Virus record (IMG/VR): IMGVR_UViG_2548876945_000012
DNA: 24,914 bases
Reading direction: 5' to 3' (one strand)
From: a virus
Taxonomy: Duplodnaviria; Heunggongvirae; Uroviricota; Caudoviricetes
Shown here: piece by piece, positions 2,901-14,600 of the stretch
Position numbering within the stretch: position 1 is the stretch's first letter
Layout: the number at the start of each line of letters is the position of its first letter
Notes under the pieces: model-generated
What the model saw: the letters and a program-made list of their open reading frames with translations, nothing else
Told to the model about the DNA's origin: nothing
Database searches by the model: none
Position numbers and translations under genes: made by a program

Positions 2901-3979
2901 CAGAACGGGTCCTCCTGTACTCTGGCTTTTTTCTTTTTCCGCGCGCCGGGGGCTTCGGGTTCAGGCAGATAAGCATCAGGCGGGCCGACACGGATTTCCG
3001 TCAGGGTGCCGTTCTGGTCCTGAGTAAACGTGACTTCCGAAACAAGCAGTTCGGTATTGTCGAAACCACAGACCGGATCAAAGACAATCACCCGCTGGTT
3101 GGGCTGCCACAGCGTACCGTTACCCTGTCGCCAGCCCTGCACCACATAGGTGGTTTCATCCGTCCGCGCCGCCCGTTGTCGGGCTTCAAAGTCCGCACGG
3201 GCAATACAACCTGCCCCCGTAGCCTGCCCTGTCTGCCTGATATACATCGGACGGTAACGGGCAATAAATGCGTCCTCTGTGCGGGCCCGCAGCGCGGTGG
3301 TGGTGGCCTCACCGAAATCATCGTCGTTTCCGGCACGCTGCCCCGCCACCTGGTAAACAGAAAATCGCTCCCGGATACTCTTCTCCGTATCGCAGGAAAG
3401 GATGTTTTCCCCGAGTACCAGCGCGGTATGTGCCCGCGTTGAGCCAATACCGCCAATCACCAGCCTGCCGTGCGGGTCGTCATAAGCCAGCGCCTGCTGC
3501 TGACCGAGTATTTTGTTAATCACCTCGATCACCGTTTCACCGTGATCAGGCTGGACATCAGGAATAACACCCGACGGCGCACCGCTGTTCACCACCTCAA
3601 TGCCGAAGGGCGCAGCAAGCGCCTGCGCAATCTGTACCAGTGATCGTCCGTTAAACTGTGTCGGTTCGGCTGCACAGTCAATCAGGTCAGCAGTCAGACT
3701 GCGTCCGGCAATACCGGTGCTGACCGAACGGGCATCGTAACGAACGGGCGTCGCCTCCACCCAGCCGGTGATCACCCGCTCATCACCAATCAGCACCTCC
3801 ACTTTTGAACCGTTTTTAATGCGCGGCTGAAGCGTGGTAATACCCTCATCACCCGGCCACTGGCGGGTGATCTCCACACTGAAATCCCGCGCCAGCCGTT
3901 CAATACCGGCACCGATGCGCACCGATGTCCAGCCATTCCACTCCCGGCCATTTACCCGTAGCGTGACATTGTCGTTCAT
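2900..3979 (-). CDS. Mu gp44 (P)-like baseplate hub / tail protein
   Basis: 359-aa ORF, ATGA overlap with upstream gene at 3976..3979; size and order consistent with Mu P-like protein. Confidence 0.5.
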   Translation of the reverse strand: MNDNVTLRVNGREWNGWTSVRIGAGIERLARDFSVEITRQWPGDEGITTLQPRIKNGSKVEVLIGDERVITGWVEATPVRYDARSVSTGIAGRSLTADLIDCAAEPTQFNGRSLVQIAQALAAPFGIEVVNSGAPSGVIPDVQPDHGETVIEVINKILGQQQALAYDDPHGRLVIGGIGSTRAHTALVLGENILSCDTEKSIRERFSVYQVAGQRAGNDDDFGEATTTALRARTEDAFIARYRPMYIRQTGQATGAGCIARADFEARQRAARTDETTYVVQGWRQGNGTLWQPNQRVIVFDPVCGFDNTELLVSEVTFTQDQNGTLTEIRVGPPDAYLPEPEAPGARKKKKARVQEDPF

Positions 3980-5247
3980 TGCACTGGCACCTTCAGAGGG
4001 ATCACCGGCACAAAGCCGGGATGCGTAATGGCATTACGCCGGATAATGTCCGCGTCACGCGCCGCGTTATCAAACCAGGTCGCCGCCAGCACCAGCGCGG
4101 GTAAAACCTCATCCGGTGTGCGCTGAATGATCCGTGCAGACTGTTCAAGGCGCGTGTTGATATCCGCATTCAGATCTGCTTTCACCCGGCGCAGCGCCAG
4201 AAACAGCGCATCGCTGGTTGTACGGGACAACTCCTTATCAATTGCCGTATTCAGTGTGTCGCGAATGTCAGTCAGTTCTTCCCACGTCGGCAGGTCAACC
4301 GTGTTTTTCACCGCCGGTGCATTGTTCAGTGCCGGATGCGTGACGGAAGGCCAGCCAGTGCTCTGCGCGGGTGTTGTTGCCTGCCCCACTGTGGCATTCT
4401 GCATCACCGCGGAAGTTGTTGGCGCAGGCAATCGGATGACGGCATACGCCGCTTCGCTGATTGCGGTCGTACGAAGGGTGCTGGCAACCACGTTACGCTG
4501 CTGCGTCGCCGTGGCGGTGGTTTTACTGTCCGTTTTCCAGACGCCACGCGGTTGCAGATCGCTGCCGAGGCTGACACCGGAAAGCGTTTTGATCATGGTG
4601 ACCAGGTCGCTGGCGTTACCATAAAGGCGTTTCCCGGTACGCCACATTTTCTGCACCTGCTCAACGAAATTTTTGCCTGACGATGGCGGCGGCAGAAGTA
4701 CCGAGATATCACCCTGCAACAGCCTGGCGGCATCCGATACGGCAGAATCCACCACTTTCATCGCATCAGAAACATACCCAAGCATTGTGCTGGCATTACC
4801 GATAACGTCGTTCTGCACAAAATCCGCCACGCCATCGATACTGAAACCGCTGAAGCTGTCACTGATGCAGTCATCCAGTGCAGAACAGGATGACATCAGC
4901 GTCTGCGCCGTCGCCACGCCTGATGTGGGGTAAGAGAGATCTCCCGCTTCGACAAACTTCAGGTCAAAGCGGACAATACGCCCTTCACTCTTCGATGTGC
5001 TGACCCGAACTTCCCCGTCAACACAGACTTTCAACTCACCGTATGTCGGGTGGACAAGCGTGCCGGGACCGGGTTTATTCAGCGCGTCAATCAGGCGATC
5101 GCGCTGGTCAAAGCAGTCATCTCCCACCACATAAGCCGTGATGGACGGGCGGAAAGTGACTTTTCCCAGATCTTCGGTATAGGGTTTGTCGCGGTTCGGA
5201 TACCACACAACCGGGATCGACGGGCAGCAGTTCAGCCACTTCGCCAA
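3976..5247 (-). pseudogene. DNA circulation protein (Mu gp43/N-like), apparently N-terminally truncated at a deletion junction
   Basis: 423-aa ORF lying where gp43 sits in Mu-like tail modules. Its 5' end overlaps, in another frame, the 3' end of the portal-fragment ORF, and there is no tape-measure gene upstream. The ATG at 5247 is probably fortuitous. Confidence 0.45.
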
Positions 5248-5801: not shown

Positions 5802-7535
5802 TTAAAGCGAGCGGATCCCGTAGGACTCAATGTGATCAGACAGCGTGTCTTCTTTCTCGTACAGCATGGCTCTGCCAACCGCCATAATCAGCGCAACTGC
5901 ACCATCGATTTTGTTTTCCGCCTGCTCTTTGACAGGCTTCACCACATCATCGTTACCCGGAATGGTTTTGCCGACCACGTTGCCGATACACCAGGTCATG
6001 ATGGGATTGCCATCATGATGAAAGCGCCCCGATTCAATTGCCGCTTCCAGCTCTTTCATCGGGTCGGACATGTTGGTGTAGTTCTGAATGATGGTGACGG
6101 GGTTCAGGTCTTCATCAGCAAGGTCATGTGAGAGCCCGGTCGCCCCGAAGGGGTCGATGGGTGACTCACTGACCGGGCTGATTTTGTTCGCCGCTTTGGC
6201 CTCCTCGAGGATGTAGCGATAATCCACCTCCGCACCATCGGTAACGGTCAGAACGCCCATTTCCACCCATTTCTGAAAGCGTTCGGCTGTCCGTCGATCT
6301 TCATTTTTCTCGACGCTGTACACCGTGTCATACGGTACCCAGAAACGCGGGGCCACACTGTAGTAATGCGTTTTACCGTCAATCTCGCGGGTATAAAGTC
6401 GCGCCATGCTGTTCATATCCAGCTTACGCGCCAGGTCAAAGGCCAGAATGCACGGCTGCCCCTCGAACTGCTCAAGGGTCAGTGATTTATCCTCGCAGCT
6501 CTGCCAGCTCACCAGGTTGAAATACGCCGAACGCGCCGACACCCAGATATTGAGGTGTTTTGTTTTAAAGACGTTTGCCAGACGGGCGTTATTTTTCGCA
6601 CGCTGCTGCTGACTTAACAAAAATTCGCGATAAACCGACACGCCAATATTTGGATTGGCTTTTTCCAGCACCTGCGGGTCGGTCCAGTCGTCACCTTCAT
6701 CAACGGTATAGATGATCCCGAACAGTTCATCGTTTGGTACCGAACCGTTGAGCATCTCGATGACTTCCCGCCGTTTGTCGTAGCACGGCCCCTCAATGTT
6801 GTACCCGGCGGTGGTGATAGCCCACATCAGTGGCTGACGTCGCGCCCCCATCCCGGTAAGCATCGTGGTATAAAGCGCATCGGTGGCGTGCTCGTGATAT
6901 TCATCCACCACCGCACAGTGGGGCGATGAACCATCACCGGGGTTACCGATCAGCGGTTCAAACCGCGCGCCATCCTCCGGACGGTTCATGTTTGAGGCGT
7001 TAACCTCAATCCCGAACGCTTCCGTCAGCATGGGCGTGCGTTTACACATCAGTCTTGCCGGACGAAAGACTTCCCATGCCTGTTTCTCCGTCGTGGCACC
7101 GGAATACACTTCTGCGCCGAACTCGTTATCACAGGCAAAACAATACAGGGCGACACCGGCAGAGATTGCCGATTTGCCGTTCTTACGGGGGATTTCGGTA
7201 TACACCTCACGGAAGCGGCGCAGCCGGGAGCCTTTATTGACCCAGCCAAACGCACAGCAGATCACAAAGAGCTGCCACGGCTCCAGCGTGATGGGCATTC
7301 TCTTGAATGCCCACTCACCCTTGGTGTGCGGCAACAGCTGAATAAATTTGGCGGCCCGTTCAGCCAGGTCCTTGTCGAAGCGGTAACGAAACGACTTACT
7401 TTTTTCCGCCATCAGGTCATCAAGATGGCGCTGGCAGACCTGAATCACAAACTGGCAGGCCACAATCTTTCCGCGCACAACATCACGGGCATACTGATTG
7501 GCAGCATTTACGTTGGGGTAAGATTTCCGGCTCAT
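5802..7535 (-). CDS. Terminase large subunit
   Basis: 577-aa ORF; ATG at 7535 overlaps the TerS stop (ATGA); sequence and length typical of phage TerL. Confidence 0.85.
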
Positions 7536-8026
7536 GACTCGATGATTTTCAGAAACGGGTTAGTGGCTTTCTTCTGCCCCGCCAGGCCAATCAGACGCTG
7601 GCGGCTGCTGGGGTCGAGTCCGAGCATTGCCCCCGTGCTGCTCATCTCGGACTCCTGTTCTTTTTTGGCGGTCAGCTCCGGATTTTTGACCCTGCCGCCC
7701 ATTGCACCGGTGATGGTGTTGCCCTGTATGGCAATATTTTTCACGGCACGTCGCCAGAACTCGTAGGCCACGCACCACCGCTCAAGCACCGCGAGGTCAG
7801 TCACGCACAGCAGGCCCTGACCGCAGAGTTCTTTGGCTGTCAGTTGCCACATGATCGTGGCGAGAGGGAGATCTTCTTCAGCGAACCACTCCGGTGGCTC
7901 AACACCTTTGATGGGCGTAAAAACAGGTTCATCTTTATTCAGGGCTCGCTTGCCGGGGTTTCCGGCCAGCGCCTTGCGCGCCGTTGGCTTGGGGCGACGC
8001 TCGGAACGCCCCGCCGTTCCAGCCAT
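7532..8026 (-). CDS. Terminase small subunit (P27 family-like)
   Basis: ORF 7532..8035 begins with GTG; the ATG at 8026..8024 with AGGAG 8 nt upstream is the likelier start (164 aa). Immediately upstream of TerL, downstream of HNH. Confidence 0.7.
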
Positions 8027-8151
8027 ATGCGGCACTCCTGGTTAAATTTCATTTTTCGCGGGTATAAAAAAACGATGGGGCGGGCAGTCCGGAAGACGTC
8101 AGGTCACAGGGATTTGACCCGCCCCTCCCCTCTGGCAGTAGGAACTGGTTC

Positions 8152-8502
8152 TTACTTCAACCGTTCACGGGCCGTCTTCGCCTTATGACACGGCCAGCAC
8201 AGGCTCTGCAGATTGCTGTCGGCATCAGTGCCGCCATGCGCTTTAGGGATGATGTGGTCAACGGTTTTCGCCTCGCGCACCACACTGGCACGCAAACACA
8301 ACTGACACAGGCCTTTGTCACGCTTCAGTACACGCCCCCGGATAACATCCCATTTCGAACCATAACCGCGCTGGTGTCGGGACTGGCCTGGCTTGTATTG
8401 CTTCCAGCCTTTGCTTTTGTGGCTTTCGCAATAGCCTGACGGGTCAGTCGTGGTATGGCGGCAGCCGCGAACGCGGCAGGCTTTTGGGGTTCGTGGAGGC
8501 AT
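8152..8502 (-). CDS. HNH endonuclease (terminase-associated)
   Basis: 116-aa protein with Cys pairs (CRVRGC...C...C, CQLC, CWPCH) and a DHIIPKAHGG motif typical of HNH nucleases; HNH-TerS-TerL order as in HK97-like phages. Confidence 0.8.
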   Translation of the reverse strand: MPPRTPKACRVRGCRHTTTDPSGYCESHKSKGWKQYKPGQSRHQRGYGSKWDVIRGRVLKRDKGLCQLCLRASVVREAKTVDHIIPKAHGGTDADSNLQSLCWPCHKAKTARERLK

Positions 8503-8629
8503 CTATTATCCCTGTAGTTTTCGTTAAATATCTAACCATAACTGCAATCAAAAACCGCTTTAACACGGTTTGTTAAATAGACTTTTCAATCCAATGAACA
8601 AACGGCAAATAAATACCAATCGTTAATTT

Positions 8630-9085
8630 TCATTTGAATACAAACGGTTCTGAAAGAATATTATGACAAATATATTTCGCCTGAATGCTATTATCTCTCA
8701 TTCTAATATATTCTTTGTGGGCAACAGATAAAGAACGACAACCGCTGTTTACACTTGGGTATTTTTCCAACATATGCTCGCATATCAAAAAAGCATTATT
8801 AATAGCATTTAATTTATGGCTTAACTCTCGTAGCTCGGCTCTTTTTTCAATACGAACATTACGACTAAGAGATAAAGGTAGCTGTGATAATGCATTTGAA
8901 TAATCAGCCACTGCCATTTTCAGAGCCATTTTGGCCTTCAGAGCCTCCTGTCGCCGCCAAACATTCATTGCCCAAAAACCTAATATAACAGTTAAAATTG
9001 AACCTAAAGCCGATACAACTGAACCTAAAGCCGATACAGCAGACCACTCTGTTCCCGAATGCCAGTTAAGTAATGTATGCCACAT
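8630..9085 (-). CDS. Hypothetical membrane protein (moron), unknown function
   Basis: ORF 8630..9097 starts with GTG; ATG at 9085..9083 has GGAGG 6 nt upstream (151 aa: MWHTLLNW...). One N-terminal TM helix then a charged, probably helical domain. AT-rich by eye, with AT-rich non-coding flanks. Confidence 0.5.
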   Translation of the reverse strand: MWHTLLNWHSGTEWSAVSALGSVVSALGSILTVILGFWAMNVWRRQEALKAKMALKMAVADYSNALSQLPLSLSRNVRIEKRAELRELSHKLNAINNAFLICEHMLEKYPSVNSGCRSLSVAHKEYIRMRDNSIQAKYICHNILSEPFVFK

Positions 9086-9418
9086 AATAACCTCCACTTA
9101 ATGAAAAGGTTATTTTATCGTAACTAAGCACCACAGGCACTATCTAAAGATTAGATGCCCTACCAGTTGTACCATCGATAATCCGCACAAAAATGATACG
9201 TAATGAACCAACTGATAACTAACTCTGCTATGCACATTTTTAATCATCAACAAACGATTTGTATTAACTTCCTCTCTCATACTAGCCCAAAAGGTTGGGC
9301 TAATAATTAATCACGATACATATTCTATGTGATGACATACTTTATGTAAGCTTTTACATTACACTATAGAAGCTGGAGCACCTAAACTTTATGCATCATA
9401 TCTTTATAATAAATAACA

Positions 9419-9697
9419 TCACTCTGGATATTTATACTTTGAATGCAAAATAGCGCGCCGTGATTCAATATTTCTGATTCCGGTTTTATCAAAATTACAT
9501 TGTCCTAACGCTGACAACAGAGCCACATTCAACTCCAGACTAGCACCATATGTCAGTGAACTGGGTATAATTGGAATCGGTGTTTCAGAAGTCAGGCTGG
9601 CTGGCAGTGGTGCCGCCGGAATGTTCACGTAAACTGTCCGCGTACTTCCGCAACCGGTCAGCAGCGGTAGCAGGCACAGGACGTGAAGCGCAATCAT
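9419..9697 (-). CDS. Rz1-like o-spanin (lipoprotein)
   Basis: Frame overlapping the 3' part of Rz; internal Met gives MIALHVLCLLPLLTGCGS with lipobox LTGC followed by a proline-rich segment. Start codon uncertain. Confidence 0.55.
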   Translation of the reverse strand: MIALHVLCLLPLLTGCGSTRTVYVNIPAAPLPASLTSETPIPIIPSSLTYGASLELNVALLSALGQCNFDKTGIRNIESRRAILHSKYKYPE

Positions 9698-9977
9698 CAC
9701 TCGCAACAGCCACTTTGATATATTCCTGGGTTCTCTGTGACTCCAGTGCGATCTGCTGTTTTGCATGTTGATTCGCCTCCTGAATGATGTTCGTTATTGC
9801 CATAGTACGCAGAACATTCGCGGTGATAGCCTCAGTAGAATCAGCTCTCTGTTCCGCAGCGTCAGCACGCTTCTGCTCCTCCAGAAACTTTCCATGATAG
9901 TGATTCGCTGACCAGACAAGACCACCAGCAACACAAGCAATAAACGTTAAAATGAGCGCCCAATAACTCATCTTCAT
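9585..9977 (-). CDS. Rz-like i-spanin
   Basis: 130-aa protein with N-terminal TM helix and charged coiled-coil-like remainder; ATGA overlap with the endolysin stop at 9974..9977. Confidence 0.7.
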   Translation of the reverse strand: MKMSYWALILTFIACVAGGLVWSANHYHGKFLEEQKRADAAEQRADSTEAITANVLRTMAITNIIQEANQHAKQQIALESQRTQEYIKVAVASDDCASRPVPATAADRLRKYADSLREHSGGTTASQPDF

Positions 9978-11242: not shown

Positions 11243-11350
11243 TAGCCACCTCTTATTGCAGTGAGTCCTCTCAGAAATAGAAATGAGAGGAATAAAAAAG
11301 GCCACCATTTGGCAGCCATAGAATTGATGTAATTATAACTAATTCATTAA

Positions 11351-12157
11351 CTATTTCTTAATGATGCTATTTAACATTTCTAATGCAAAAAGCAACATGG
11401 AGCTAATAAAATATAATATAACCGCACTGGCAATCGCTCCAATTATAGCCTGGACACTCCAGTGAAAGTAATTTTTACCATTAATAACAAACTTAACACT
11501 AGGAAACAAAAAGTCGATAAGCTTAATTATTAATGGAATAGCAAAGCTCCATAAGTTCGAAAACAAAATAAAGATACAAATAAATGATAAAGCAAATGCA
11601 CCATCGATTGATAGTTTTGGCGCCAGTTTTGAGGCTGTCCATAAGCTAAGCAAAAAGCCAACTGTCACACCTGAAATCTGGATACTTAACATAGTCCAAG
11701 CTGTTCTAAAAAATCTAAATTTATTTTTGCACTTGTTAAGTAAATCCTGAATCGTAATCCATAACGAGTCAACCCACTCATTATCTTCCGATGCTACAAT
11801 CATTGTGCTGCTATTTGAATTCCTCTCATCAATTCGTAGCTCCATCCAAGATCCATTCATCCTGTTAGACTGTCGACTTTGATAAGTTTCAATAGTAAAA
11901 ATTATTTGATCAATCCTAGTGGCCTGTCTAAAGTATTTCACAAGCTCACCGATAGAATCAACTTTATATCCCTTACCATCGAACAAAATAAAAAAAACAC
12001 ATTGAGCACAAACTTCCCTACTTTCCTTTTGAGCTTGCTCATTCATTTTAACGCAGCGTTCGACAATTGCCGTGCTTAAGCTAATCAAGCTATCTTCATT
12101 TATAGAAACACCTGAAATATTCTTGCTTCTGTAAAAATATGACACTTTCGATTCCAC
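11351..12157 (-). CDS. Hypothetical protein: soluble N-terminal domain (~150 aa) plus three C-terminal TM helices; accessory (moron) gene
   Basis: 268-aa ORF in an AT-rich island; first codon is GTG (internal ATG at codon 38 is an alternative start). Hydrophobic segments near aa 165-185, 195-220 and 240-265. No family recognised. Confidence 0.5.
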   Translation of the reverse strand: MESKVSYFYRSKNISGVSINEDSLISLSTAIVERCVKMNEQAQKESREVCAQCVFFILFDGKGYKVDSIGELVKYFRQATRIDQIIFTIETYQSRQSNRMNGSWMELRIDERNSNSSTMIVASEDNEWVDSLWITIQDLLNKCKNKFRFFRTAWTMLSIQISGVTVGFLLSLWTASKLAPKLSIDGAFALSFICIFILFSNLWSFAIPLIIKLIDFLFPSVKFVINGKNYFHWSVQAIIGAIASAVILYFISSMLLFALEMLNSIIKK

Positions 12158-12322
12158 TCCGCACCAGTCTCGATTTAGCGCAGGTTAACATAACCACTTC
12201 ATTGGTAGAAGAAAAGAACTCTTCTTGTCAGAAAGCTACTGTGATATCCCTAAACCTGCAGATGATACAGAACAAAATTTAAGCATCAATTGTAGGCGAT
12301 TTTAAATTCACTTTACAGTTTA

Positions 12323-12340
12323 GGCTGCCAATTGGCAGCC
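12323..12340. promoter_or_regulatory. Perfect 18-bp palindrome GGCTGCCAATTGGCAGCC between the two moron genes
   Basis: Read directly; lies 15 nt past the stop of the 89-aa gene and upstream of the 268-aa gene; no U-run follows on either strand. Confidence 0.4.
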
Positions 12341-12354
12341 GATTGAAGCAGAAA

Positions 12355-12624
12355 TCAATGAGTGCTCATCGATGAATTTTTTTCAGCGCCAATCTCACTC
12401 AAAAAAGCAAAACCTTTTGACGTTATCTCATTAGCAATCAATCCACCTTCGGCAGATTTGCTTCGTATAACATCGATAAAACCTATATCAGCAAGATCTG
12501 AAATAGCAAAATTAACCTCTTTTGCTGAGAGATGAGGTAATGATGCAGCCTGAATTCTAGAATCCTTTGGCTGCAATTCATTCACTCGACGTAGTATTTC
12601 AAGATGGATAGAGGTCAGTTTCAT
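12355..12624 (-). CDS. Hypothetical small protein, possibly winged-helix DNA-binding
   Basis: 89 aa; ATG at 12624..12622 with AGGAG 6 nt upstream; helix / helix / beta-hairpin pattern by eye; AT-rich; followed by an 18-bp perfect palindrome. Confidence 0.5.
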   Translation of the reverse strand: MKLTSIHLEILRRVNELQPKDSRIQAASLPHLSAKEVNFAISDLADIGFIDVIRSKSAEGGLIANEITSKGFAFLSEIGAEKNSSMSTH

Positions 12625-12707
12625 AATGTTCTCCTGTTTTTAATGTTGTTTTACAGAAAACATTATAACACATTGATTTTGATGTAGATTGAATAGAAAA
12701 AAACCAT

Positions 12708-12730
12708 AAAAAAACCTCGCAATAGCGAGG
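12708..12730 (-). terminator. Intrinsic terminator downstream of Q (tR'-like)
   Basis: Minus strand reads CCTCGC-tatt-GCGAGG followed by TTTTTTT (plus coordinates 12730..12715 stem, 12714..12708 U-run). Confidence 0.55.
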
Positions 12731-12761
12731 TCGTAAAAATCGTTCAACGATAGATACACAA

Positions 12762-12797
12762 GCCCCATCGTTGAGAAAATCTTATCCATATTTTTTG
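12762..12797 (-). promoter_or_regulatory. Candidate late promoter PR' (sigma70-like) between Q and tR'
   Basis: Minus strand TTGTGT (12797..12792), 17-nt spacer, TAAGAT (12774..12769); both hexamers are weak matches. Position after Q and ~50 nt before the terminator fits the lambdoid PR'-tR' arrangement. Confidence 0.3.
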
Positions 12798-12838
12798 AGA
12801 AACACAAGCATTATGTCGTTATCTTCGGCGAAAATCGC

Positions 12839-13591
12839 TTATCTCGTCACCCTTCTCAATTGTGCTTCAGCGTAAGCTTCCTCCTGCCAGCACTTTGTAA
12901 CCAGTTTATCAATGACATCTGCATATCCTTTGTACCACTGATAATCCGTCAGGTCTGGTACCAGCTTCTGGACATGAAGCCGCGCCAGTGTGGTTGGTAA
13001 ACGGCTAAACCGGTTTCCATTGCAACGCCCACAAATCTTATAAACAGGCGTGCCATGAAGCCGGGTTCTTTTTTCATCCAGGACAATACCTTTACCCTTA
13101 CACCCTCTGCACGCTGTGCTGACTTCTCCCTTACCATGACAATGCTGACATAGTTCCTTCACCCACTCTTCCTTGATAACAGACTCCCCGCTTCTGGAGT
13201 GTTTCACCACTTCGCGCAATACATTATGAAATCCAGTACCAGCACAATGCTCACAGCGAGCCTTACTTGCCGCAGACCTGGAATAATCAGCAAAGGCAAA
13301 ATTCACAAGGTAAGGAATGATCTGTAGCCGGGTTTCTTCACTCAATTTGTTCAATGTCGGGTTATCCAGTGCCATCGCGTAATTGAGCAGACCTTCAATC
13401 GCAAACTGAGGATCCTGAACACCAACTTTTGCCAGGAATAAGGCAAACCCAAGCGGTGCTTTCGACTGCACCATCCCCTGCGCAGCCATCACATCTGTAA
13501 TTGTTAAACCACCCGAGCCTGTCGCCGGTGCGTCATCACTCAATTTTGGAGATTTTGGGGAGTAATATTTTGGTAAGGCTTCAAGGTTCAT
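12839..13591 (-). CDS. Late antiterminator Q
   Basis: ORF 12839..13633 begins with GTG; ATG at 13591 with GGAG upstream gives 250 aa. Cys-rich zinc-binding-like motifs (CEHCAGTG, CQHCHGKG, CRGCKGKG, CGRCNG); position directly upstream of PR'/tR' and the lysis genes. Confidence 0.65.
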   Translation of the reverse strand: MNLEALPKYYSPKSPKLSDDAPATGSGGLTITDVMAAQGMVQSKAPLGFALFLAKVGVQDPQFAIEGLLNYAMALDNPTLNKLSEETRLQIIPYLVNFAFADYSRSAASKARCEHCAGTGFHNVLREVVKHSRSGESVIKEEWVKELCQHCHGKGEVSTACRGCKGKGIVLDEKRTRLHGTPVYKICGRCNGNRFSRLPTTLARLHVQKLVPDLTDYQWYKGYADVIDKLVTKCWQEEAYAEAQLRRVTR

Positions 13592-13604
13592 GCTCGTTCT
13601 CCAC

Positions 13605-14600
13605 TTACGCCAGTACGCCAATTGCCAGCGCACGATCGATAAAACGAAATATCAGCTCCAGCTGGGAGCCATACTTCTCTTCAAATGCCACGGTATCCGC
13701 ATGCAGCTCGTCGTGATGCTTTCTGCACAAAGGCAACACAAAGAGGTCATGCGCTTTTGTACCCATCCCACCCTGACCGTGGCCTATCAAGTGGTGGGGA
13801 TCATCAGCAGGCTTTCCACAACATGCACACGGCTGTGTCTTAACCCAGCGCGTGTACTTTTCATTAACCCAGCGGCGACGTTTTGGGCGTAACATAAAAG
13901 ACTCCGGCGACTCCGGATCCACTTTCAGCGTCAGCACCTTTTTCGCCTTATCCTGGATGATGCTGGTGGCAGGAACCGAAGGCACAAGGTCACTTTCCCG
14001 GGTGACAGACGGCACAACAGGCTTTGGTAATCTCAGTGCCTTACGGGCTGCACTTTCCGGTAAGGCATCCGCCAGGTCATTACGAATCAGCCACCAGCAC
14101 AGTTCCGGCATTGTCACAACGTGACTATCATCAAAACCGAGATCCCGACGCACAACAGACAACACCCAGCGGGCACAGTTATCCGTTGCCATTGATTCCA
14201 GCCGTTCCGTGAACTGATCGCGCAGCTGGTTATCACAGTGCCAGCACAGACGGATTGCGCCCGGAGCGTGTCGCATTGTGGTCATGTTCTCGCTATGCCA
14301 GTCGGAATGAGGCCACTGGCAGCCTTTTTCACGAAGTAACCAGCTTTCAAGACATTCCACGCCACCAGCACGACGGATCACTGCCTCATTGCGGAACACG
14401 GCCCGAACAGCAGGATCATCCGCCAGCGGTTGTGATGCCGCGGGAACGGCACCACTGGCGAAAGATGAATAACGTTCCGGCTCAGGCTCCAGCAGTACAC
14501 GCCCCTGCATAAACAGGGGCATCAGCTCTGAACCTGGTCTGAACAATACGATCCCCATACGCGGGGCTATTTCAGGGGTCAGTAGTGCTCTCACGGTCAC
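13605..14600 (-). CDS. DUF968-like prophage protein (nin region)
   Basis: 331-aa ORF; GTG start at 14600 one nt after the KilA-N stop (alternative ATG at 14558); C-terminal Cys/His cluster (CACCGKPADDPHHLIGHGQGG...CRKHHDELH). Family assignment from memory. Confidence 0.5.
   Translation of the reverse strand: MTVRALLTPEIAPRMGIVLFRPGSELMPLFMQGRVLLEPEPERYSSFASGAVPAASQPLADDPAVRAVFRNEAVIRRAGGVECLESWLLREKGCQWPHSDWHSENMTTMRHAPGAIRLCWHCDNQLRDQFTERLESMATDNCARWVLSVVRRDLGFDDSHVVTMPELCWWLIRNDLADALPESAARKALRLPKPVVPSVTRESDLVPSVPATSIIQDKAKKVLTLKVDPESPESFMLRPKRRRWVNEKYTRWVKTQPCACCGKPADDPHHLIGHGQGGMGTKAHDLFVLPLCRKHHDELHADTVAFEEKYGSQLELIFRFIDRALAIGVLA

Follow-up and report, generated by a model that had tools for sequence, protein, structure and literature searches.

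Between the Rz1/LysC o-spanin gene and an HNH endonuclease gene of a temperate Caudoviricetes phage genome (IMG/VR virus record IMGVR_UViG_2548876945_000012; the whole stretch of 24,914 nucleotides (nt) is called the window here, with positions counted from its first letter), there is an AT-rich insert carrying a single gene for a 151-aa membrane protein. At somewhat less than even confidence, we favour the reading that this insert holds an autonomous moron cassette at the lysis-packaging junction, translated mainly from its own promoter, with a possible anti-phage action of the protein as the weakest step of the proposal. A moron, in the definition of Juhala et al. 2000 (via PMC3594210), is additional DNA separating two genes that lie side by side in relatives, with a deviant GC content, its own promoter and terminator, and expression in the prophage. 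By its insertion and its composition the cassette is, as judged from sequence, structurally a moron; its promoter and terminator are supported at the level of the protein family and are weak in the copy found in the window.

The borders of the insert were placed by blastn against an empty site (locus L007), where homology stops at 8515 and restarts at 9465. The segment of ~950 bp that is missing from empty-slot relatives, consisting of the moron cassette and an upstream spacer, is accordingly 8516..9464, on the minus strand. The first-pass annotation had described an AT-rich island with one 151-aa membrane-protein gene between Rz1 and the HNH/terminase genes; this is present at essentially the claimed coordinates (8503-9418), and the location stands, but the insert proved to be larger than the intergenic gap. 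Because homology with the empty site resumes only at 9465, the final ~15 codons of Rz1 fall inside the variable segment. The C-terminal tail of Rz1 (9419-9464) varies with the cargo, reading ...AILHSKYKYPE here, ...NALLAAGK at the empty site and ...GHIMQKK beside a GrlR cargo. The GC content is 0.35 for the insert, 0.373 for the open reading frame (ORF), 0.33 upstream of it and 0.31 downstream, compared with 0.563 for the left flank, 0.496 for the right flank and 0.507 for the whole window. The AT-rich non-coding flanks of the ORF, which had been estimated at ~130 and ~320 bp, measure 127 bp (8503-8629) and 333 bp (9086-9418) and hold no convincing ORFs. No direct repeats or transposon-like ends were found flanking the insert. 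The upstream spacer contains a GC-rich hairpin, GCCCAA-CCTT-TTGGGC (9285..9300, minus strand), that has no T-run.

Comparison with related prophages shows how variable this slot is. The distance from Rz1 to HNH is 916 bp here and 26 bp in L007, and the two genes are contiguous in SfV-type records. The HNH/Rz1 flanks match ~1200 of 5426 complete E. coli genomes, and the island is found in 27/5426, each with one chromosomal copy. In a spread sample of the flank matches, the Rz1-HNH spans were ~780-800 (empty), 1157, ~1270, 1299, 1380, 1448, ~1510, ~1680 (phrog_6169 gene present; see below) and ~1920-1950 bp. Many related prophages have nothing in the slot, which takes at least eight alternative states elsewhere, annotated examples of the other cargo being a GrlR-family gene, unrelated hypothetical proteins of 64, 124, 168 and 197 aa, an opposite-strand gene pair, and a 184-aa protein in the enterotoxigenic E. 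coli (ETEC) strain H10407 and in Salmonella phage 118970_sal3. The profile built from the family of the 151-aa protein recognises the 184-aa slot protein (E 4e-40) and no other slot cargo, and this ~20% identical member occurs in another 27 E. coli genomes. Because the slot is empty or holds many unrelated cargos in relatives, it is a cargo hot spot, and two ~20%-identical members of one family are among its alternative occupants. The GrlR-family gene of the slot is found at L009:3489-3809 (E. coli 23CRST011) and in other genomes, with a match to PF16518 that is at threshold; GrlR is a regulator of the type III secretion island LEE (locus of enterocyte effacement). The proposal of the first-pass annotation that the gene is a horizontally acquired moron was supported by the 27 island genomes set against ~1200 flank matches, by the empty and alternative slots, by the deviant GC content and by promoter- and terminator-like ends that are conserved in the family.

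The ORF occupies 8630..9085 on the minus strand (ATG at 9085, stop codon included), with a Shine-Dalgarno (SD) sequence, GGAGG (9091..9095), 5 nt before the ATG. A listed GTG start at 9097 is unlikely to be in use, since it is located inside the SD region. The SD itself lies within the 3' arm of a predicted leader hairpin (9088..9112, minus strand), in which an anti-SD arm, TAACCTTT (9112-9105), pairs with GGAGGTTA (9095-9088). Directly abutting the anti-SD arm is a -10-like hexamer, TAAAAT (9112..9117, minus strand), whose predicted start is 7 nt downstream, at ~9105. We aligned 21 distinct leaders from family members that are 20-60% identical in protein, and throughout this alignment the nucleotides directly 3' of the hexamer complement the SD region. 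The hexamer has the form TAnnnT (TA[A/C/G]AAT-like), with T1, A2 and T6 invariant in 21/21 of these diverse leaders; the same three positions are the most important ones of the sigma-70 -10 element. The distance from the hexamer to the ATG is 24-28 nt, with a mode of 26 (25 leaders). The helix is 82.7% paired across the family leaders, compared with 37-56% when the partner is slid by 1-3 columns, and six of its ten pairs vary on both sides (e.g. CG:10/AU:7, AU:9/CG:4). The observed covariation was matched by 0/500 column shuffles, and RNAalifold independently yields the identical helix. The anti-SD and SD arms are AACCTCC and GGAGGTT in most 145-aa members, TCACCTC and GAGGTGA in one 184-aa group, CTCACT and AGTGAG in ETEC H10407, CTCAT and ATGAG in L077, and TCCCC and GGGGA in L012. 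Comparative analysis thus shows, for the predicted SD-occluding helix, maintenance by compensatory changes, next to an invariant hexamer at a fixed spacing.

Folding calculations give the same picture of the leader. The 50-nt leader of the window has a folding energy of -12.6 kcal/mol (z -3.05), and without the anti-SD arm this is reduced to -2.4 kcal/mol. By partition function, the probability that the SD pairs with upstream sequence has a median of 0.99 in 24 distinct family leaders versus 0.49 for a comparison set of 235 other genes with an SD from these loci, a difference with a Mann-Whitney p of 3e-12, which overstates independence because the family leaders are related to each other. For an RNA that begins 7 nt after the hexamer, SD pairing has a median of 0.60, which is about background, and in the window it goes from 0.97 to 0.60. 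The leader hairpin was also considered as a terminator or attenuator, and this was rejected, as the T-run following it is not conserved. No Rfam family was matched in the island of the window. At the other end of the cassette, a weak terminator-like hairpin, AACCG-N8-CGGTT followed by a T-run (8545..8571, minus strand), is found ~60 nt after the stop codon. A hairpin with a T-run within 120 nt of the stop is present in 18/26 distinct family contexts, most of these being far stronger than the one in the window. What may be new here is the design of the leader; the protein family is already catalogued as a PHROG.

The coding status of the ORF is clear from the diverged member pairs, for which the ratio of nonsynonymous to synonymous substitution rates (dN/dS, by Nei-Gojobori) is 0.09-0.2 at dS 0.35-1.5; therefore, the ORF is a protein-coding gene under purifying selection. 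The first-pass annotation recognised no family for its product. This holds for Pfam, NCBIfam and PADLOC, scans of which gave nothing above threshold for the 151-aa protein, but the PHROG profiles place it clearly in phrog_6169, annotated as of unknown function (E 9e-59, residues 12-155), and all 43 diverse relatives match the same PHROG. A word-indexed search returned 22 clusters, from E. coli, Salmonella, Enterobacter and Hafnia, and an exhaustive profile search of 1.84 billion representatives (50%-identity library) returned only 70 at E<=0.001. The family relatives that were aligned are each 137-195 aa long and have a single architecture, and RefSeq lists the family as hypothetical proteins (WP_032300356.1). 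Pfam and PADLOC scans of the 43 relatives gave nothing above threshold, a PDB sequence-profile search gave nothing below E 0.2, and there was no PHROG, Pfam or PDB match to SieA, HK97 gp15 or T4 Imm/Sp. Neither GiPD474, which is an ATPase, nor SNIPE, a nuclease, proved to be related. A literature search by accessions and PHROG id found no paper on the phrog_6169 family.

The protein has a single hydrophobic segment at residues ~14-43 (Kyte-Doolittle 19-residue maximum 2.1). Its codons are at 8957..9046 on the minus strand, and it is rich in small residues that recur at heptad spacing. There is no K/R in the N-terminal 13 residues, there are 5 K/R in the 20 residues after the helix, and the C-terminal 108 residues have 18 K/R and 10 D/E. 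Hydropathy and residue counts are thus in agreement with the earlier description of one N-terminal transmembrane (TM) helix and a charged C-terminal domain, and the positive-inside charge pattern predicts an N-out/C-in topology. An AlphaFold model made from the 43-sequence alignment is confident (predicted local distance difference test, pLDDT, 93; predicted template modelling score, pTM, 0.78). In it, an uninterrupted helix of residues 8-67 spans the membrane, and its cytoplasmic half forms a four-helix bundle with three further helices. The protein is predicted to be a bitopic inner-membrane protein with the bundle in the cytoplasm; the modelled structure supports a bitopic membrane protein and gives no function. 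The mean pairwise identity is 37-39% for the TM and juxtamembrane helix and 19-23% for the rest of the C-terminal bundle, the basic juxtamembrane helix having the consensus W-R/K-x-Q-E-x-L-K-A-K-x-x-F-K. No invariant catalytic-type residues are present across the broad family, and a HEPN-like or enzymatic bundle was rejected on this ground for the cytoplasmic domain. The homology and structure searches that the first-pass annotation had proposed uncovered no relation to lysis or virion proteins.

The TM helix of the window allele contains an exact 21-bp tandem duplication, for which Tandem Repeats Finder reports a period of 21, 1.9 copies and 100% matches. The first-pass annotation had the repeat and its product, SAVSALG/SVVSALG, right; its coordinates are 8999..9038, not 9001..9042. 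The duplication adds 7 residues, or two helical turns, to the TM helix and stretches the hydrophobic helix from ~23 to ~30 residues; the 145-aa homologues are without these 7 residues. Since exactly one S-x-x-S-A-L-G heptad is added, the small-residue face should be kept roughly in register. The duplication allele is recent and rare, being found in 3 of the 27 E. coli island genomes and in two IMG/VR contigs.

The genomic context of the family was examined in 61 loci carrying a phrog_6169 member, and in 61/61 the gene reads in the same direction as the late operon. Clustering of the neighbours gave endolysins, spanins, holins and Q upstream, and HNH, three kinds of small terminase subunit, ParB-like genes, large terminase subunits and portals downstream. 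Presence and absence of the gene among similar prophages had been put forward earlier as a check on the moron proposal; the gene is indeed not ubiquitous, but its position in the late operon, at the lysis-packaging junction, is strongly conserved at the level of the family, which had not been anticipated. The lysis cassettes across the loci comprise at least five holin families (Phage_holin_8+3_7, holin_2_1, lambda-family, holin_3_3 and holin_3_1 were met) and three endolysin types, and the packaging modules are of three types; with so many kinds of holin, endolysin and packaging genes, the gene is tied to no particular lysis or packaging partner. An exception in position is the temperate Enterobacter phage CobraSix, where the gene lies between the large terminase subunit gene and a 449-aa, probably portal, gene. 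Locus L087 holds two divergent phrog_6169 genes (3839-4360 and 5995-6555), one at the Q-holin position and one at the lysis-packaging junction, the second copy having its own TAAAGT box and anti-SD hairpin, and L006 has tandem copies (78-233 and 280-792). A scan of species-representative genomes yielded one further locus only.

Taking the leader, the protein and the context together, we infer an insulation mechanism that can be put as follows. On the minus strand, the cassette would consist of a weak promoter (-10 TAAAAT), the SD-pairing leader, the 151-aa ORF and a weak intrinsic terminator. Transcription from its own promoter would begin ~7 nt past the hexamer, inside the anti-SD arm, and since this mRNA would be without the full arm it would be translated at an ordinary rate. 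The only strong source of RNA from upstream would be the Q-antiterminated late transcript, which ignores terminators, and such read-through from the lysis genes would carry the arm and have the SD locked in the hairpin. The outcome would be a low level of the protein in the lysogen and no over-production during lytic growth. The protein would be inserted N-out/C-in, its constant core being the small-residue membrane helix together with the basic juxtamembrane helix, and its variable part a fast-diverging cytoplasmic four-helix bundle. The weakest step would be that the protein works against incoming phages from the cytoplasmic side of the inner membrane, either by blocking genome entry or by sensing infection and damaging the membrane. 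Superinfection exclusion or abortive infection is, by analogy, a plausible guess for the role of the protein, and one that falls distinctly short of probable. Features that would fit an anti-phage membrane factor are the moron anatomy, the likely expression in the lysogen, the conserved core with a divergent bundle, the very divergent types at one slot and the divergent paralogues in one prophage.

A number of observations weigh against this proposal. The -35 region is poor (GTGCCT, 3/6), and in a generic sigma-70 scan sites were no commoner than in shuffles and the hexamer was not called, the simple scan missing it because of the weak -35. The invariant TAnnnT could alternatively be a signal at the RNA level, e.g. 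an RNase E site. Many members have a second extended -10-like box (TGnGATAAT) ~22 nt further upstream, the transcripts from which would include the whole hairpin. The relief of SD pairing by 5' shortening is partial in silico, some members keeping 0.76-0.83 because their SD pairs with the coding region. The terminator-like hairpin at 8545-8571 is a weak copy and was not called by a stricter terminator scan of the window. The upstream intergenic gap is just 24-80 bp in several members, which also fits plain late-operon expression. As for the function, overall dN/dS is purifying, not diversifying, and there was no sequence or fold match to a defence, exclusion, lysis or virion protein: PADLOC-DB 2.0 had no match to the protein at E<=1, with three isolated matches (E 0.002-0.007) for the 43 relatives, and the fold searches returned generic helical bundles only, BFVD being without a match at E<=0.001.

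The moron anatomy would be equally expected of a lysogenic-conversion gene unrelated to defence, altering an envelope, transport, stress or virulence trait of the host, of which Bor and Lom of lambda are examples. The slot corresponds to what we take to be the post-lysis position of lambda bor, and elsewhere the same slot holds the GrlR-family regulator, a virulence-regulation fold. The functions of morons are, moreover, diverse (PMC3594210). However, neither the sequence nor the fold indicates a host target, the carrier strains come from a mixture of sources (food, chicken, human, panda, river) that gives no niche signal, and the divergent paralogues and two ~20%-identical types at one slot are a better fit to target diversification, so we regard this explanation as somewhat unlikely. 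A late lytic accessory, be it an antiholin-like protein for lysis timing or a membrane factor in packaging or lysis whose dose the hairpin keeps low, would account for a gene that has the orientation of the late operon in every locus and follows the spanin genes directly in nearly every one, with upstream gaps down to 24 bp. A membrane protein with a small-residue TM helix would suit this role, and SD pairing stays above background in some of the shortened leaders. But the gene is missing from the great majority of otherwise similar prophages, it shows no co-variation with a lysis partner across at least five unrelated holin families and three endolysin types, and it has no lysis PHROG or Pfam match. 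The CobraSix copy, too, is away from the lysis genes, after the large terminase subunit. In most members a terminator follows the gene, and a late accessory would leave the invariant -10-like box without a role. A late lytic function therefore seems unlikely.

The almost complete occlusion of the SD recalls type I toxin-antitoxin systems, and a selfish toxin-like or addiction module, harmful if over-made and stabilising the cassette or the prophage, could also take the form of a protein that crosses the membrane once, through a small-residue helix of the oligomerisation type, and occur in tandem and duplicate copies. At 145-184 aa and with a folded cytoplasmic domain, however, the family far exceeds the size of type I toxins, and the gene is freely lost or replaced at the slot, which argues against addiction. 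Rfam finds nothing, though no search aimed at an antisense promoter or a small RNA was made. We consider such a module very unlikely. Lastly, the gene could be a decaying or functionless passenger ORF in AT-rich junk DNA, as might be thought from its lack of a known domain, the in-frame TM-helix duplication of the window allele and the degenerate state in the window of a promoter-proximal 40-nt element (see below). Against this are the conservation of length and architecture in 70 clusters, the strong SD, the covarying conserved leader and the confident fold; a junk ORF is essentially excluded because of the dN/dS of 0.09-0.2, and we give the passenger explanation hardly any weight.

The 40-nt element just mentioned, AGGCATTACAGCAGGCATTCACTGAGTGCCTGTGATAATG, is sharply bounded and consists of an inverted repeat, GCAGGCA-N9-TGCCTGC, followed by an extended -10-like TGnGATAAT. 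The leader alignment locates a degenerate remnant of it in the window at 9131..9160, on the minus strand. Intact copies are found at L079:5921-5960, L090:2132-2171 and phi80 NC_021190 44298-44337. Among the matches listed there are more than 120 IMG/VR contigs and, in addition, 44 phage records, the carriers including phi80, mEp390, phiP27, cdtI, Klebsiella prophages and Pectobacterium ZF40. Inside the element identity is at least 90%, and only a few nt beyond either edge it is down to background; the ORFs that follow the element form at least 52 unrelated clusters. The element is unannotated, with no Rfam match at the canonical copies, and its motif sequence was not found in a literature search. 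The GCAGGCA-N9-TGCCTGC hairpin was rejected as an RNA structure, its covariation being equalled by 147/500 shuffles, and is part of the 40-nt DNA element. For late-region cargo, the element may serve as a portable promoter/operator or may be a sequence at which modules are joined. By eye, unrelated cargo following it (L100, L103, L115, L125) also has an anti-SD/SD hairpin before the start, e.g. GACCTCC...GGAGGT and CTCCTT...AAGGAG, and SD occlusion may be general in late-region cargo genes beyond phrog_6169.

The prophage as a whole is of the SfV/e14-like lambdoid type, from E. coli, and its nearest named relatives are SfV, SfIV, SfI and similar phages; the region studied is 99.9% identical to a prophage in E. 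coli CFIAFB20190172. Integration adjoins tRNA-Thr(CGU) (23471-23546) and proA, the integrase gene being at 22293-23456, and this is the same site as that of the Shigella serotype-converting phages. A near-identical E. coli record has an acyltransferase-family gene past the tail-fibre genes. The minus strand carries all the late genes, in the order Q, a first AT-rich cargo, lysis genes, island, packaging and head/tail. The Q antiterminator gene (12839-13633, minus strand) matches PF03589. The lysis block 5' of the island encodes two holins, a GH19 endolysin, Rz and Rz1/LysC, the last of these being the upstream neighbour of the island (9419..9766, minus strand; PF23793, E 5e-14). The downstream neighbour is the HNH endonuclease gene (8152..8502, minus strand; PF01844, E 2e-15), followed by the genes for the small terminase subunit (7532-8035, minus strand) and the large terminase subunit (5802-7535, minus strand). 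The linear SfV and SfIV records stop ~6 nt past window position 8100, and the cos site of this phage type is expected at ~8094, in the gap that separates the stop codon of HNH (8152) from the start of the small terminase gene (8035). With cos at ~8094, no genes would lie closer to the right end of the virion DNA than HNH and the island.

Besides the island, there is a second AT-rich cargo region in the window (11309-12838, GC 0.35), located between the Q antiterminator and the holins, in the slot where Shiga-toxin phages hold stx. It contains an 89-aa gene (12355-12624) with a weak DUF2513 match, which has TGTTATAAT before it and a hairpin after it, and a gene for a multi-pass membrane protein of 264-268 aa (11351-12157) that belongs to phrog_30208, of unknown function, and has no Pfam or PADLOC match. 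A strong terminator is present at ~11292-11318, after the gene for this membrane protein.

Morons are where temperate phages keep genes that change the host, and most of them are uncharacterised. The phrog_6169 proteins are a small, confidently folded family that recurs at one junction across many different Enterobacterales prophages, and the leader suggests how cargo that is co-oriented with a very strong late operon could avoid lytic over-translation. If the insulation is true, a -10 box abutting an anti-SD arm would be a signature for cargo genes expressed in the lysogen, as well as a compact insulation part for synthetic biology, and if the exclusion or abortive-infection role is true, the family would be a new single-gene membrane defence. 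A bolder version, which we put forward as doubtful, would have the phrog_6169 cassettes be a new single-gene inner-membrane anti-phage (exclusion or abortive-infection) family of lambdoid prophages in a self-insulating module, with the -10 fused to the anti-SD arm and the gene translatable only from its own promoter and never from late read-through, and with this design and the 40-nt element together forming a general docking-and-expression platform for morons.

Among known systems, SNIPE (PMC13190303) shares the concept of a membrane-anchored defence at the site of genome entry. SNIPE is a nuclease, whereas the phrog_6169 protein is without a nuclease motif and is not homologous to it. The likeness to P22 SieA (PMC10883804) is closer in form: both are small prophage-borne proteins of the inner membrane (a predicted location for the phrog_6169 protein; SieA is ~160 aa) that carry a conserved cytoplasmic-side motif, and both have several types of <30% identity at equivalent positions in related phages. 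SieA, which blocks DNA entry via the ejection proteins, has three predicted TM helices (PMC10883804), whereas the phrog_6169 protein has one; no homology was detected, and the genomic location is different. HK97 gp15 is the classic moron-encoded membrane exclusion protein (PMC3594210). The cassette is like HK97 gene 15 and lambda bor and lom in being extra DNA between genes, of deviant GC content, and in being a single late-region gene with promoter- and terminator-like ends whose product is a small membrane protein. In sequence this product is not related to gp15, Bor or Lom, as it matches no PHROG or Pfam family other than phrog_6169. To our knowledge, an SD-occluding leader that abuts a -10 box has not been described for the HK97 and lambda morons. 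The closest parallel to the leader is the fold-back inhibition of IS10/Tn10, which reportedly (Davis, Simons and Kleckner, 1985) shields the element from transcription that begins at outside promoters. As in IS10, an upstream arm would pair with the ribosome-binding region such that read-through RNA alone is occluded, the arm here being nt 1-8 after the hexamer. In contrast to IS10, no antisense RNA partner is known here, the start site is predicted from sequence, and the leader belongs to a phage late operon and not to the end of a transposon.

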